DNA of 64,000 nucleotides from an uncultured Clostridia bacterium (GTDB lineage: Bacteria > Bacillota > Clostridia > TANB77 > CAG-508): positions 3,919-67,918 of the forward strand of contig CANQYM010000005.1 in the NCBI GenBank assembly GCA_947628085.1. Reading direction: 5' to 3'. The position numbers and the translations under genes were made by a program. The notes beneath the pieces are model-generated. The model was not told the DNA's origin. It saw only the letters and a program-made list of their open reading frames with translations, and ran no database searches. Positions 8,847 through 12,455 of this stretch are shown here, in pieces (position 1 is the first letter of the stretch; every line of letters begins with the position of its first letter).

Positions 8847-11800
8847 ATGGAAGATATCTTATCACAATTTGAAAAAAATATAATTTCTTGGTATCCAATA
8901 GAAAAAAATAAAAAAGTTCTAGAAATTGAAAATTCTGAAGAAATAGTAAATGAATTAAAGACAAAAACTTCAGAAATTAAATCAATATCTCTAGAACAAA
9001 TTTGTGATGCACCTGAAAACGATTTTGACTATGTTGTTTTAATAGGTACTTTTGAAAAGTTGAGTAGTAAAGAAGAAATTTTAAATTTATTAAATTTTGC
9101 TAAAAAAAGTTTAAATAAAGATGGAAAAATTCTTCTAGCTATGAAAAATAAATTCGGTATGAAATATTGGACTGGAGAAAGTATTAACAAAGAAAAACCA
9201 TATTTATCAATAGTGTCAGATAAAGAAAACATATTAGGATTAACGAAAATAAAAAACATTTTAAATGATTTAAATTTAAAATTTAAAATTTATTATGCAC
9301 TTCCTGACTATAAATTAACAAATGTTATTTTTACAGATGATTTTATGCCAGATAATGAGAGTATTGATGCAAGAGATTTAAGTTTTGTAGATAAAGAAAA
9401 TGCTTTAAATTTCTCAGAAAGAGATGCTTATAAACAAATATTAAAAGATGACAAAAATTTATTTCCTTTTTTTGCAAATTCATTTTTTATTGAAATTGGA
9501 AATGCTGAAAACTTTGAAGATGTGAAATTTGTTAGTTTTGGGATTACTAGAAAAAAAGAATATAGAATAAAAACAATTATAAAGAATGATTATGTTTATA
9601 AATATGCAAACGATAACGATTTAACACATATAAATAACATTTTTAAAAATATTGATATATTAAGAAAAAATAATATAGAAGTTCTTGGAGAATTTAAAAA
9701 TGACGGAATAGAGAGTATATTTTTAAAACAAGCAAAATCTCTTGATAAAGTTTTAATGGAAATTTATTTTAGAGAAGGATTAGAAAAAACCATTAAAAGT
9801 ATCGAAGAATTTAGAGAAAAGGTATTAAATAAATTATTAAATGAAAAACTAGATGGAAAAGACATATTTGAAAAATATGAAATTAAATTTCCTTTAGAAT
9901 TAAAAGAAAAAATGCATTTTACTAAAAATGGAATGCTAGACCTAATTTTTCAAAATTGCTTGATAAAAGATAATATTCTATATGCTTATGATCAAGAATG
10001 GTATGAGCAAAATGTTCCAGTAGAATTTATATTATATAGAGCTATAATTTATTTTACTGAACTAAGAAATAATGAGAACATAGATAAAATATTTGAATTA
10101 TTAAATTTAAATGAATATGTAGAGTATTTTGAAGTTTTAGAAAATAAAATTCAAGAAGACTTAGTAGATCAAGACATGTGGAATCTTCATCTAGAAACTG
10201 TTAGAGAAATAGGAAATACTAGAGAAATTTTGGATAATTATAAAAAGAGATTATCTTCTGCAAATACTCATATACAAAACTTAGAAAACAATATTAAACA
10301 ATATGAAGAACATATTGAAAACTATAAAAGCGGAATAGAAGGCTTAACGAAACTTGTTAAAGATAAAGATGAAGAACTTGTAAATTACGCAAATCAATTA
10401 AGAGCAATATCTAACTCACTTTCTTGGAAAATAACAAAACCTGTAAGAATCTTTTCATGGATGTTTAATCCTTTTAATGGTGCAACATTTATTGATAGAA
10501 TAATGCCACCTGGTGGAAAAAGAAGAATAGAATATGATAAAAAACAAACAGAAAAGAAATATGCTAAAAAAGTTGAAAATTACTATAAACTATCAGATGA
10601 AGAAACAGCAGAATATTGGAAAGGAATTGATCACAGAAAATATTTAAAATATGAAAAAAATCTTGAAAGAGAAGAAAAAGATCAATTTTCTGATTATGAA
10701 AAATGGATAAAAGAAAATACACCAAGTGACCAAGAAATTGAAAAACAAGAAAAAACAAAATTTAGAAGAAGACCAAAAATAAGCATTGTAGTGCCACTTT
10801 ATAACACAAATACAGAATTTTTTAGAGAATTATTATATACAGTACATTGTCAAACATACAAAAATTGGGAATTATGTCTGGCAGATGGAAGTGAAGAACC
10901 ATTAGAAGAAATTATATCAATGACTAAGAATGATAAAAGAATAAAATATAAATTTTTAGGCGAAAATAAAGGAATTTCTGAAAATACAAATGAAGCAATA
11001 AAAATGGCTACAGGAAAATACATTTCACTTCTAGACCATGATGATATGCTTGATATAAGTGCTTTGTATGAAGTGGTAAAAGTAATAAATGAAAACAAGA
11101 ATGTAGATTTTATATATACAGACGAAGATAAATTTCATTTCTTAGATGCACCATATTATGAACCACATTTTAAACCAGACTTTGCACCAGACACTCTAAG
11201 AGCAAATAATTATATTTGTCATTATAGTGTATTTAAAAAAGAATTAATAGATAAAATAGGTGGATTTAATCACGATTTTGATGGAGCTCAAGATTTTGAT
11301 ATGATTTTAAGAGCAACAGAAAATGCAAAAAATATTGTTCACATTCCTAAAGTATTATATCATTGGAGAGTTCATAAAAATTCTACTGCAATGCAAACAG
11401 AGGCAAAACCGTATGCAATAGAGGCAGGAAGAAGGGCTATAGAAGCACATTTAGCAAGAATAGGTTTAAAGGGAGAAGTAACAAATGGAGTAAATCCTGG
11501 TACTTATCAAATAAAATATGATGTGATTGGAAATCCAAAAATTTCTATTCTTATGCCAAATAAAGATGAAGTAGAAACTTTGAAAACTTGTATAAACTCT
11601 ATTTTTAGTAAAACAACTTATAGCAATTATGAAATTATAATAATAGAAAATAATAGTGAAACAGATGAAATTTTTGATTATTATAAAGAACTATTAAAAT
11701 CTAATAAAATAAAAATTTTAAACTATAATACTGGAAAGTTTATAGAAAATGAAAAAGAGTGCAGTAAAGAATATTCTAAAGAAAATGAAAGAGAAGGGTT

Positions 11801-12455
11801 GAAACACGAGTTTAATTATTCTGCAATTATAAATTTTGGTGTAAAAAATATAGAAACAGATTTTGTAGTTCAATTAAACAATGATACAGAATTATTAACA
11901 CCAGATTGGCTTGAAAAAATGGTTGGATTTTGCCAAAGAGATGATGTTGGTGCTTGTGGAGTAAAACTTTATTACCCAGATGAAACAATTCAACATGCAG
12001 GAATAATTGTTGGTTGTCGTACAGTAGCAGCACATATGCTTAGAGGATTACCAAAAGATAAACCAGGATATTTTGGTAGAGAAAATTTAATTCAAAACAT
12101 GAATGCAGTAACAGCGGCTTGCATAATGACTAAAAAATCAACATTTGAAGAGGTTGGATATATGAATGAAGATTTTGCAGTTGCATTTAATGATATAGAT
12201 TTTTGCTTGAGAATAAGAAATACTGGTAAACTAATAGTTTATAATCCATTTGTTGAATTTTTACATTATGAATCTAAGTCTAGAGGCAATGATAATGACC
12301 CAGACAAGATAGAAAGATTTCATAGAGAAATTAATTTGTTTTTAGAAACATGGAAAGAAAAGTTAGCTTCAGGAGATGAATATTATAATAAAAATTTAAG
12401 CTTAGATTCAGATCAATATGAGATTAAATTTAAAAAAATTCGAAAGGAAACATAA
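8847..12455 (+). CDS. multidomain glycan chain-terminator/extension enzyme: N-terminal methyltransferase-like domain, coiled coil, two GT2 domains (WsaE/WbdD-like architecture)
   Basis: The 1202-aa protein has four parts. Residues 1-220 form a class-I MTase-like fold (DFDYVVLIGTFEKL, DGKILLA) whose motif I lacks glycines (VLEIENSEE). Residues 430-530 are heptad-rich and predicted coiled coil. Residues 640-1202 hold two GT2 domains (KISIVVPLYNT…, KISILMPNKDE…) and are paralogous to the next two genes. Confidence 0.6.
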   Translation: MEDILSQFEKNIISWYPIEKNKKVLEIENSEEIVNELKTKTSEIKSISLEQICDAPENDFDYVVLIGTFEKLSSKEEILNLLNFAKKSLNKDGKILLAMKNKFGMKYWTGESINKEKPYLSIVSDKENILGLTKIKNILNDLNLKFKIYYALPDYKLTNVIFTDDFMPDNESIDARDLSFVDKENALNFSERDAYKQILKDDKNLFPFFANSFFIEIGNAENFEDVKFVSFGITRKKEYRIKTIIKNDYVYKYANDNDLTHINNIFKNIDILRKNNIEVLGEFKNDGIESIFLKQAKSLDKVLMEIYFREGLEKTIKSIEEFREKVLNKLLNEKLDGKDIFEKYEIKFPLELKEKMHFTKNGMLDLIFQNCLIKDNILYAYDQEWYEQNVPVEFILYRAIIYFTELRNNENIDKIFELLNLNEYVEYFEVLENKIQEDLVDQDMWNLHLETVREIGNTREILDNYKKRLSSANTHIQNLENNIKQYEEHIENYKSGIEGLTKLVKDKDEELVNYANQLRAISNSLSWKITKPVRIFSWMFNPFNGATFIDRIMPPGGKRRIEYDKKQTEKKYAKKVENYYKLSDEETAEYWKGIDHRKYLKYEKNLEREEKDQFSDYEKWIKENTPSDQEIEKQEKTKFRRRPKISIVVPLYNTNTEFFRELLYTVHCQTYKNWELCLADGSEEPLEEIISMTKNDKRIKYKFLGENKGISENTNEAIKMATGKYISLLDHDDMLDISALYEVVKVINENKNVDFIYTDEDKFHFLDAPYYEPHFKPDFAPDTLRANNYICHYSVFKKELIDKIGGFNHDFDGAQDFDMILRATENAKNIVHIPKVLYHWRVHKNSTAMQTEAKPYAIEAGRRAIEAHLARIGLKGEVTNGVNPGTYQIKYDVIGNPKISILMPNKDEVETLKTCINSIFSKTTYSNYEIIIIENNSETDEIFDYYKELLKSNKIKILNYNTGKFIENEKECSKEYSKENEREGLKHEFNYSAIINFGVKNIETDFVVQLNNDTELLTPDWLEKMVGFCQRDDVGACGVKLYYPDETIQHAGIIVGCRTVAAHMLRGLPKDKPGYFGRENLIQNMNAVTAACIMTKKSTFEEVGYMNEDFAVAFNDIDFCLRIRNTGKLIVYNPFVEFLHYESKSRGNDNDPDKIERFHREINLFLETWKEKLASGDEYYNKNLSLDSDQYEIKFKKIRKET

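Follow-up and report, generated by a model that had tools for sequence, protein, structure and literature searches.

A putative kinase-type chain terminator with a degenerate methyltransferase domain, fused to glycan polymerase modules in an uncultured gut Clostridia

A 1202-residue protein encoded in the analysed stretch of DNA (64,000 nucleotides, hereafter the window) is best read as a kinase-only chain terminator, predicted to cap a glycan with phosphate, which is fused to its own polymerase and carries a pseudo-methyltransferase domain as a scaffold; we would put the probability of this reading at about 0.6. It builds on domain folds, invariant residues, a coiled-coil register, variation of coil length in heptad steps and a gene context, all of which the analysis showed. 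The domain order of the protein is that of WbdD from E. coli O9a in the N-terminal half and that of ORF6 from K. pneumoniae O7 overall.

The open reading frame (8847..12455, + strand, ATG start) encodes, in order, a pseudo-methyltransferase (MTase) domain, a kinase-like domain, a coiled coil, a conserved helix, a linker and two GT2 glycosyltransferase domains, and no transmembrane segment was predicted over its whole length. An identical protein is on record from four contigs, and the arrangement is therefore no one-off frameshift or assembly artefact. The organism itself is known from uncultured MAGs only. In an AF2 model of residues 1-620 (pLDDT 86), the MTase-like domain is followed by another globular domain and then by a long helix spanning residues 458-522. 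Foldseek searches with this head returned both MTases and WbdD; the WbdD structures 4ax8, 4azt, 4azs, 4azw and 4uw0 were among the top matches, with 480-590 aligned columns covering both N-terminal domains. The likeness to WbdD lies at the fold level only, phmmer and a profile search against PDB sequences having given no sequence-level similarity. A sequence-only reading of this DNA had proposed a WbdD/WsaE-type protein that would polymerise, measure and terminate a glycan made by an ABC-transporter-dependent pathway, a view well supported by fold, coiled coil and gene context, and the N-terminal MTase-like domain, coiled coil and two GT2 domains that it named were all recovered (Pfam, family profile, AF2). 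Left unexplained in its domain map were about 330 residues (aa 128-456), which make up the C-terminal portion of the MTase-like fold as well as a kinase-like domain that had been missed.

This cryptic protein-kinase-like domain (aa ~191-456, about 260 residues; 9417..10214, + strand) was recognised from AF2 models, Foldseek matches and invariant residues. Modelled in isolation, it reached a pLDDT of 90.6, and its best 50 Foldseek matches in the PDB were all of kinase fold (LicA, PRPK, RIO, APH(3') and MTR kinase), headed by the choline kinase LicA with other small-molecule kinases next, at modest TM-scores of 0.35-0.53. No sequence-level match of the domain to Pfam kinase families or PDB chains was found. 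The candidate catalytic residues are K252, equivalent to the beta3 Lys, D365-x4-N370, equivalent to the catalytic loop, and D382 (YDQEW), equivalent to the metal-binding Asp; in the AF2 models D365-x4-N370, a beta-hairpin and D382 follow each other in the same order as the catalytic loop and then the DFG Asp, and no equivalent of the alphaC glutamate was identified in the domain. K252, D365, N370, D382 and E384 did not vary in any of the 71 homologues examined, nor among 80 species representatives or 125 cluster representatives, and the tally of candidate kinase residues over the 80 species representatives registered one R235K. The predicted fold and the motif geometry make a kinase assignment likely. 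Because this is the sole N-terminal module whose catalytic-type residues stay invariant across the family, the earlier proposal for the terminating chemistry, methylation or use of "a different donor", is probably mistaken, and the chain cap is likely a phosphate.

The kinase-like domain is followed by a coiled coil of 65 residues or about nine heptads (aa 458-522; 10218..10412, + strand), modelled by AF2 as a single helix with a length of about 96 Å if straight. Its a and d positions were 84% hydrophobic, versus 6.5% elsewhere, in a single unbroken register, and none of 5000 shuffled sequences reached the observed heptad signal; the coiled coil at this position is statistically unambiguous. 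Its presence had been foreseen, with an extent of some 100 residues at 430-530 that did not hold. Within the clade sharing at least 50% identity, anchor-to-anchor coil lengths were 69, 76, 83, 104, 118 and 125 (76 ± 7k) with one exception, and between species the length changes almost only by whole heptads. This heptad-quantised natural variation is consistent with a ruler role, such as that of the WbdD coil, in which altered length changes chain length (PMC5082667). Indels in heptad steps are also expected under a purely structural constraint.

Directly after the coil lies a conserved basic/aromatic helix (SWKITKPVRIFSWMF), aligned as NSLSWKITKPVRIFSWMF over aa 523-540 (10413..10466, + strand), in which S524, S526, W527, T530, P532 and R534 show either no variation or at least 90% conservation. 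It is the best-conserved segment of the protein, with a mean pairwise identity of 69% within the clade and 53% outside it, and stand-alone homologues have their C-terminus here; the helix may serve at the membrane interface or in docking of the polymerase. A fusion linker (aa 541-625; 10467..10721, + strand; aligned with P0001, P0003 and P0069) contains two predicted helices (558-582 and 585-611, lower pLDDT in AF2), is conserved among fused homologues only and gave tblastn matches confined to fused loci. Two stretches of the protein matched PF00535 (E 1.9e-35; 122.7 bits, cut-off 23.3), bearing out the two GT2 domains expected. GT2 domain A (aa ~643-875; 10773..11471, + strand), with the DxD-type motif LLDHDD, holds the best of these stretches (aa 646-804), and the chondroitin polymerase 2z86/2z87 in the PDB matched aa 630-875 (E 5.5e-19). 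GT2 domain B (aa ~893-1147; 11523..12287, + strand) holds the second stretch and NCBIfam matches at 896-938, 992-1140 and 1085-1140; in alignments it corresponds to the second GT2 domain of the downstream paralogues.

The gene context is that of an exported glycan, with the locus order wzm, GT2, wzt(Wzt_C), the 1202-residue frame and two double-GT2 genes, all on the + strand. Wzm, an ABC-2 permease of glycan exporters (5628..6440), matched ABC2_membrane in Pfam (E 1.9e-16) and has five TM-like segments; between wzm and wzt lies a single-domain GT2 glycosyltransferase gene (6464..7438; Glycos_transf_2, E 1.6e-29), found in identical position in a syntenic locus (L001). The ABC ATPase Wzt (7480..8778; ABC_tran, E 1.6e-24) had been placed downstream of the 1202-residue frame and in fact lies immediately upstream, and it does carry the C-terminal carbohydrate-binding extension ascribed to it (Wzt_C, aa 284-422, nt ~8329-8745, E 3.8e-35); its best PDB match was full-length O-antigen Wzt with its carbohydrate-binding domain (8dku/7k2t, E ~1e-70, two matched stretches). 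Downstream, a paralogous double-GT2 protein of 649 aa (12455..14404; two Pfam GT2 matches, 61% identity to aa ~600-1200), whose start at 12455 overlaps the stop of the 1202-residue frame (TAATG), is followed by a second of 623 aa (14406..16277; two Pfam GT2 matches, 54% identity to the C-terminal half). The gene cluster as a whole contains five single GT2 and three double-GT2 genes and a Wzy_C-type transferase (1270-2589).

The head module stood beside Wzm, Wzt(Wzt_C) and double-GT2 genes in almost every one of 80 reference genomes, being fused to the double GT2 in about 22 of the 80 and otherwise encoded directly upstream of it; in other lineages it was fused to WbsX+RgpF, to GT2+GT2+WsaF or to GT2+GT4. 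Divergence of the Wzt carbohydrate-binding module (CBM) was not seen to track the state of the MTase domain, in a test of low power. Such tracking might be expected if cap chemistry differed.

These distributions bear on an unlikely reading in which the head is no terminator, its kinase phosphorylating a small molecule (choline, an amino-alcohol or a sugar precursor, as LicA does) or only binding nucleotide as a regulator, with the coil merely oligomerising the polymerase complex. Phosphocholine or similar groups often decorate Gram-positive wall polymers, which speaks for such an activity, as does the rank of LicA and other small-molecule kinases among the fold matches. However, a small-molecule kinase would have no obvious use for a register-perfect coil that varies by heptads, nor would it require its gene to be tied to those of Wzt(Wzt_C) and polymerising GTs as strictly as in the 80 genomes, or to be fused to four different polymerase types. 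Moreover, the cluster showed no cytidylyltransferase or phosphotransferase that could act as a partner, and both the co-linear match of MTase, kinase and coil to WbdD and the experimentally characterised O7 ORF6 suit a terminator better.

The N-terminal MTase-like Rossmann remnant (aa 1 to ~190, an approximate boundary; 8847..9416, + strand) was recognised by family profile, alignment and AF2, with pLDDT mostly above 90. On its own the window protein stayed below threshold in Pfam (E 0.16-0.22), but the family profile matched class I SAM methyltransferases of the PDB (E ~1e-6, profile positions ~24-127) and Pfam Methyltransf_23 matched 42 of 71 homologues. The motif I of the window protein, VLEIENSEE, was confirmed as degenerate by alignment with relatives that have VLEIGAGMGAITG there, and FDYVVLIGTFEKL and DGKILLA, taken earlier as retained motifs II and III, indeed line up with beta4 and beta5 of real MTases. 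In addition, the clade of the window protein has lost about 24 residues in the SAM-binding half (beta2-alphaB-beta3), as judged by alignment with intact-motif relatives, in which this segment holds the context of the beta2 acidic residue and the beta3 Asp loop. Judged by sequence and model, the window protein appears to lack a functional SAM-binding site, whose elements would be a Gly-rich motif I, an acidic residue of beta2 and an Asp loop after beta3. An intact GxGxG was found in 8 of 71 homologues, in 4 of 81 sequences (the 80 species representatives plus the window protein) and in 31 of 125 cluster representatives, and decay of motif I recurs across many lineages while the putative kinase residues remain unchanged throughout. 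In the degenerate clade the remnant is nevertheless as conserved as the kinase domain, which fits the pseudo-methyltransferase scaffold that the sequence-only reading had considered; the domain appears to be a dead remnant kept as a scaffold. No second SAM-MTase gene was found among the surveyed genes of the cluster.

This conservation also speaks for a bifunctional terminator of the full WbdD/ORF6 type, in which SAM would be bound in a non-canonical way and the chain would end in methyl-phosphate, like the glycans of E. coli O9a and K. pneumoniae O3/O7. The MTase-like domain is well folded, conservation reaches at least 90% at N11, W15, Y16, D61, G93, N101 and K102 in intact and degenerate members alike, many close relatives keep one motif I Gly and the acidic residue ending beta2 (VVVIEK), so that some SAM binding may persist, and the Wzt CBM diverges independently of MTase state in the low-power test. 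We nonetheless consider it rather improbable, since the motif I of the window protein (EIENSEE) has no Gly at all, the deletion takes away the segment that in intact relatives bears the beta2 acidic context and the beta3 Asp loop, Pfam MTase models give the window protein only E 0.06-0.2 (against 1e-10 to 1e-12 for relatives with intact motif I), and the MTase has decayed in lineage after lineage with constant kinase residues. Very improbable, finally, is that both N-terminal domains are inactive and the head is a pure scaffold recruiting or spacing three double-GT2 polymerases, with termination by another enzyme of the cluster such as a single GT2 adding a capping sugar: GT2 genes of both kinds are at hand, the alphaC Glu was not identified and a Kdo cap is known from K. 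pneumoniae O12/O4 (PMC11231755) and a sugar cap has been suggested for lactococcal rhamnan (PMC9574508), but the five kinase-type residues, invariant over more than 125 divergent representatives, form an active-site pattern, and the MTase motif decays freely in proteins where these residues never vary.

For the kinase-only terminator, the likeness to WbdD (O9a) and ORF6 (O7) leads us to infer kinase activity on the glycan terminus, a dead MTase, a ruler function of the coil and recognition of the cap by the Wzt CBM. The protein would work in the cytoplasm as a peripheral membrane enzyme, both polymerising and terminating a surface glycan; this glycan would be assembled on a lipid carrier and leave the cytoplasm through the neighbouring Wzm/Wzt ABC transporter. 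Both C-terminal GT2 domains and the two downstream paralogous double-GT2 proteins would extend the chain at the membrane. The coiled coil would keep the head at a distance from the sugar-adding domains, and only chains of sufficient length would reach the head, whose kinase-like domain would phosphorylate the non-reducing terminal sugar and so stop elongation. The terminal phosphate would then be the tag required by the carbohydrate-binding domain of Wzt for export. The MTase-like domain, having lost its SAM-binding elements, may be retained as a structural or acceptor-binding scaffold, and the predicted cap is therefore phosphate and not methyl-phosphate.

How chains are terminated and how their length is controlled has been established in detail only for a few Gram-negative O antigens, and for ABC-transporter-dependent wall polysaccharides of Gram-positives both are essentially untested (PMC9574508). 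The locus, and a family of more than 150 clusters, offer a concrete candidate terminator for gut Clostridia and a natural experiment in which the MTase half of a kinase/MTase terminator decayed many times and the kinase half never did. A broader proposal, which we regard as speculative and somewhat doubtful, is that this is a large, uncharacterised terminator family of Gram-positive gut commensals that repeatedly discarded MTase activity and kept the kinase, so that their wall or S-layer glycans would end in a bare phosphate read by the Wzt CBM; the pseudo-methyltransferase might have taken on a new role in acceptor binding or as a clamp, and coil lengths from 69 to 125 residues between anchors in close relatives might be a natural allelic series setting species-specific glycan length. 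These whole-heptad steps could provide a test of the ruler model outside Enterobacteria, and a portable module of head plus ruler, found on at least four polymerase types, might be used in glycoengineering of defined chain lengths.

Among known systems, WbdD of E. coli O9a and K. pneumoniae O3 (4azs, 4azw, 4uw0) shows the same order of MTase (1-210), kinase (211-459) and coiled coil (from 460) with nearly identical boundaries (PMC3482155), the catalytic loop Asn and DFG-type Asp that in WbdD bind Mg-ATP, and a coil (the ruler in WbdD) directly after the kinase. WbdD also has a membrane-proximal C-terminal region, to which the conserved helix after the present coil may correspond. WbdD differs in its active MTase, in recruiting WbdA where the polymerase is here covalently fused, and in a ruler of about 200 Å, twice as long as the present coil. 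Closer in overall design, when compared by description, is ORF6 of K. pneumoniae O7, with MTase, cryptic kinase, coiled coil and two GT2 modules and with kinase activity in vitro (Kelly et al., J Biol Chem 2024, PMC11231755). Both proteins combine terminator, coil and two C-terminal GT2 modules in one polypeptide, contain a kinase domain unrecognised by sequence databases and have a Wzm/Wzt(CBM) exporter as partner, and the nearest structural relatives of the ORF6 kinase are likewise aminoglycoside/small-molecule kinases and not WbdD (PMC11231755). ORF6, however, has 1414 residues, an active MTase and a methyl-phosphate cap, serves Gram-negative LPS, and carries an Ig-like CBM between kinase and coil, where AF2 models of the 1202-residue protein gave no such module or beta-rich insert between the kinase end (~456) and the coil start (458). 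WsaE of the Geobacillus stearothermophilus S-layer glycan is a Gram-positive enzyme in which a methyltransferase at the N-terminus is joined to two glycosyltransferase domains; its genes are ordered wzm, wzt, wsaE, and a Wzy_C-type transferase belongs to the cluster (PMC2943079). The gene order, the layout of an MTase-like plus two GT domains and the Wzy_C-type transferase are matched here, and distant members of the present family are fused to WsaF-type domains. Unlike the 1202-residue protein with its degenerate motif I, WsaE has an active MTase that forms a 2-O-methyl cap, in vitro independently of chain length, and the review describes no kinase or coiled coil for it (PMC2943079). WbbB of K. 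pneumoniae O12 and Raoultella likewise unites, in one polypeptide, an N-terminal terminator, a ruler formed by a coiled coil and a C-terminal pair of polymerising GT modules (PMC11231755), but its terminator is a Kdo transferase and not a kinase/MTase pair.

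The open reading frame located by the sequence-only reading was confirmed at 8847..12455 on the + strand, with an ATG start and a product of 1202 aa, in a strongly AT-rich window (GC ~0.22-0.30). Its stop codon overlaps the start of the downstream gene (12455-14404) in the sequence TAATG. The Wzt gene, which had been placed downstream, actually lies immediately upstream (7480-8778, + strand); it encodes an ABC ATPase and, as had been proposed, a carbohydrate-binding domain (Pfam Wzt_C, E 3.8e-35), and its closest solved relative is a full-length O-antigen Wzt with its CBD (8dku/7k2t, E ~1e-70). 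Wzm is encoded 5' of Wzt (5628-6440, + strand), with a single GT2 gene between the two (6464-7438, + strand). No TM-like segment was detected in the 1202-aa protein, and it was therefore ruled out as a membrane protein. A strong Shine-Dalgarno sequence (AAGGAG, 8813-8818) precedes a two-codon start-stop ORF (ATG TAA, 8821-8826), and the actual ATG at 8847 has no obvious Shine-Dalgarno sequence of its own; this arrangement could be due to chance, or could constitute a translational coupling or attenuation device.

Between the methyltransferase-like part of the protein and its coiled coil lie ~260 strongly conserved residues, including the motifs YRIKT, VYK, DLIFQN and YDQEW, which were recognised by fold search only, after Pfam, NCBIfam and profile searches. 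Pfam kinase families gave zero matches to the 71 homologues at E values up to 1, the NCBIfam search left this middle domain unmatched, and a profile of the kinase-like domain alone found no PDB chains at E values up to 10. AlphaFold2 models were built from the 71-sequence alignment, with a pLDDT of 86 for aa 1-620, and a pLDDT of 90.6 and a pTM of 0.86 for aa 128-456. Foldseek searches with the whole head (methyltransferase-like plus middle domain) returned WbdD structures (4ax8, 4azt, 4azs, 4azw, 4uw0) among the best matches, in co-linear alignments of 480-590 columns with E ~1e-5, bearing out the likeness to WbdD first proposed from sequence. With the middle domain alone, the top 50/50 matches were protein-kinase-like enzymes, headed by LicA choline kinase (E 1.8e-6) and including PRPK/Bud32, choline/ethanolamine kinases, methylthioribose kinase, RIO1/2, APH(3') enzymes and macrolide phosphotransferase. 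The TM-scores were modest (0.35-0.53), in line with remote membership of the kinase fold.

In canonical kinases the catalytic loop is followed by β7-β8 and then by the DFG Asp, an order that is reproduced in the model by D365-x4-N370, a β-hairpin (371-374, 377-380) and D382, with K252 in the strand equivalent to β3. The spacing of N370/D382 is near-identical to that of N356/D369 in WbdD (PMC3482155). Eight residues (R235, T243, K252, H261, D365, N370, D382 and E384) are identical in 71/71 homologues, and the same eight are kept in 80 GTDB species representatives with R235K as the single exception. An exhaustive HMM search yielded 144 best representatives, aligned with hmmalign, of which 19 are fragments or module-less proteins and 125 contain the head-plus-coil module; the D/N/D triad is broken in 0/125 of these module-bearing cluster representatives. 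As modelled, the middle domain is a kinase-like fold with a conserved kinase-type triad, and we consider it a putative kinase.

The adjacent methyltransferase-like domain gave only sub-threshold Pfam matches in the window protein (aa 21-103, E 0.16-0.22). The family profile matched class I methyltransferases in the PDB with E ~1e-6 over profile positions ~24-127, and in these alignments FDY..LIG and DGK.L pair with strands β4 and β5; the original assignment of this domain and of its conserved motifs is correct on both counts, and its degeneracy had perhaps even been understated. Alignment of intact relatives shows VLEIGAGMGAITG, then V.VE.S, then a ~40-residue β2-αB-β3 segment. In the window protein motif I reads VLEIENSEE, and across its clade the segment has shrunk to 14-20 residues, which amounts to a ~24-residue deletion besides the loss of the Gly loop. 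Motif I is intact in 8/71 homologues; among the 80 species representatives plus the window protein (n=81) it is intact in 4, near-intact (GAxxG) in 10 and degenerate in 67, the corresponding numbers for the 125 cluster representatives being 31, 17 and 77. More distant homologues (35-40% identity) have clear SAM-methyltransferase Pfam domains, and in most of the distant relatives whose fusion partners are other GT types the methyltransferase is intact, which suggests that the combination of methyltransferase and kinase was the ancestral state. The remnant is nevertheless not in free decay, since mean pairwise identity within the degenerate clade is 53% in this part vs 56% in the kinase domain; across the whole family, conservation reaches at least 90% at N11, W15, Y16, D61, G93, N101 and K102. 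Judging from these alignments, the two head domains have met opposite evolutionary fates, with invariant kinase residues and a mostly degenerate motif I. In two 846-aa homologues (P0070 and P0071; L003:10001-12541 and L047) the N-terminal module is tandemly duplicated, with an intact methyltransferase copy (GAGMGAITG) followed by a second, degenerate copy (ILIINSDIDVF), the kinase and the coil, and this duplication may be an intermediate toward retention of a pseudo-methyltransferase.

The remnant may still be functional as a methyltransferase. Many relatives retain one Gly and the β2 acidic residue, and Wzt CBM divergence, which would support different cap chemistries if it accompanied methyltransferase state, did not follow that state when regressed on kinase and NBD identity (379/2000 permutations, in a low-power test). 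Against such activity stand the absence of the Gly loop and the deletion in β2-β3; no additional SAM-methyltransferase gene was found in the glycan cluster.

Pfam gave weak coiled-coil-type matches at ~430-530, the region from which a coil of ~100 aa had been proposed. The coil is indeed present, as one helix in the AlphaFold2 model, but it is shorter, spanning 458-522 (65 residues, ~96 Å). It has a single, uninterrupted heptad register, with L/I/V/M/F/Y at 84% of a/d positions vs 6.5% elsewhere, a contrast equalled in 0/5000 shuffles. The distance from W445 to W527, both invariant, served as a measure of coil length in 21 species, the window's among them, that form the clade with at least 50% identity. 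It came to 69, 76 (the mode), 83 (the window), 104, 118 or 125, each of which is 76 ± 7k, with 72 as the lone exception among the 21 species. Of the non-modal lengths, 7/8 are whole multiples of 7 away from the mode (P ~1e-5 under a uniform null, the events not all being independent). Only two close-clade members, L012 (72) and P0040 (151), lie off this series, and may reflect a stutter, a stammer or an alignment slip. The coil also has the lowest sequence conservation of all segments (19% identity outside the clade), and this variable sequence combined with a length quantised in heptads is the pattern of a spacer. In WbdD, coil insertions raise and truncations lower the modal chain length (PMC5082667; PMC11231755). 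Directly C-terminal to the coil is the most conserved short element, NSLSWKITKPVRIFSWMF, with which the stand-alone homologues end; from its basic and aromatic character, it may act as an interfacial or docking helix, comparable to the C-terminal region of WbdD.

The two GT2 domains claimed for the C-terminal half correspond to two Pfam PF00535 stretches (E 1.9e-35). Residues ~600-1200 are 61% and 54% identical to the double-GT2 proteins encoded at 12455-14404 and 14406-16277, and 57% identical to a separate 646-aa gene product 3' of a stand-alone 539-aa homologue in the related locus L001, which reads wzm, GT2, wzt(Wzt_C), 539-aa module, GT2x2, GT2x2. Counting the C-terminal half of the ORF, 10700-16277 holds three tandem paralogous double-GT2 units (54-61% identity), vs two in the syntenic L001, which looks like a recent tandem expansion of polymerase modules. 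The N-terminal half forms a widespread module of its own: a search with aa 1-620 gave 354 homologues, most of which stand alone, are 530-545 aa long and match no Pfam domain. All reference matches come from uncultured gut Clostridia MAGs (rabbit, sheep, chicken, human; including 'Ca. Scatovivens'), the nearest, L006, being 89% identical. Fused forms of 1080-1230 aa with a conserved ~85-aa linker make up ~22/80 species representatives, and four contigs on record carry the identical 1202-aa protein (e.g. ENA ERZ27249032 NODE_63, 53 kb), so that a frameshift or assembly artefact was ruled out. Among the 80 species-representative loci, nearly all of those with enough flank have Wzm and Wzt(Wzt_C) within a few kb, and GT2x2 fused to the module or directly downstream of it. 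Elsewhere the head-plus-coil module is fused to WbsX+RgpF, GT2+GT2+WsaF, GT2+GT4 or RgpF; it thus behaves as a candidate portable terminator and ruler joined to interchangeable polymerases.

Several large polytopic membrane proteins with 8-15 TM-like segments are encoded at the ends of the glycan cluster (22108-27507, 33-1280, 18973-21210). One is a DUF7657/DUF7654 protein, those at 22108-23367, 23432-25615 and 25669-27507 had no Pfam match, and all are candidate extracytoplasmic (GT-C-like) enzymes of glycan modification. The DUF6077 membrane protein encoded at 2586-3632 comes after a Wzy_C protein of the O-antigen ligase/O-oligosaccharyltransferase type (1270-2589); in Geobacillus, the S-layer O-oligosaccharyltransferase is proposed to be WsaB, also a Wzy_C protein. 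Many related loci contain DUF6077; in L003, whose methyltransferase is intact, it is all that separates wzt from the terminator gene (wzm, wzt(Wzt_C), DUF6077, module, GT2x2). L001, which comes from a related MAG and is otherwise syntenic, has an insertion between its epimerase gene and wzm, consisting of a sortase-dependent pilus operon (Cna_B/SpaA pilins and a sortase; L001:1839-6663). Downstream of the glycan cluster and directly after RlmN, a PP2C phosphatase gene precedes a PASTA-domain Ser/Thr kinase gene (29651-32457), a PrkC/Stp-type pair that is ordinary and conserved in Firmicutes. Three acetate/butyrate-kinase paralogues (36548-37747, 37777-38976 and 39071-40258; Pfam Acetate_kinase, each E <1e-138) lie in tandem after a phosphate acetyl/butyryl-transferase gene (35480-36472).

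Starting from the observed domain identities, conservation pattern, coil properties and gene linkage, we infer the working of the system by analogy with WbdD and the Klebsiella pneumoniae O7 protein ORF6, in which a sequence-cryptic kinase phosphorylates and activity is lost in D441A (PMC11231755). Lipid-linked glycan would be extended at the membrane by the GT2 domains and the paralogous double-GT2 proteins, with the head kept ~10 nm away by the coiled coil as a ruler. On reaching sufficient length, the chain, as acceptor, would be phosphorylated at its non-reducing end by the kinase-like domain, next to a probably dead methyltransferase remnant, and the phosphate cap would halt elongation and license Wzm/Wzt export through recognition by the Wzt CBM. 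The kinase-like domain may instead act on a small molecule, as its top fold match, LicA, would suggest, but three observations argue against this: the triad is invariant, linkage to Wzt(Wzt_C) and to polymerases is obligatory, and the match to WbdD is co-linear. The same three observations speak against a head that is a pure scaffold.

Chain termination in Gram-positive gut bacteria is experimentally open (PMC9574508), and the value of the window system lies mainly in its pseudo-enzyme pattern, in the natural series of heptad steps and in carrying the terminator paradigm over to these organisms. Of the known systems, K. pneumoniae O7 ORF6 (methyltransferase, cryptic kinase, CBM, coil and 2xGT2) comes closest, and the window protein differs from it in having no Ig-like CBM. 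It resembles WbdD in head and coil, although there is no similarity at the sequence level, and has the single-polypeptide logic in common with WbbB, while WsaE provides a Gram-positive precedent with an identical wzm-wzt-gene order (PMC2943079). Compared with these known systems, the methyltransferase is degenerate, the coil is shorter and the hosts are uncultured Clostridia; because of the degenerate methyltransferase, a cap consisting of phosphate only is predicted.
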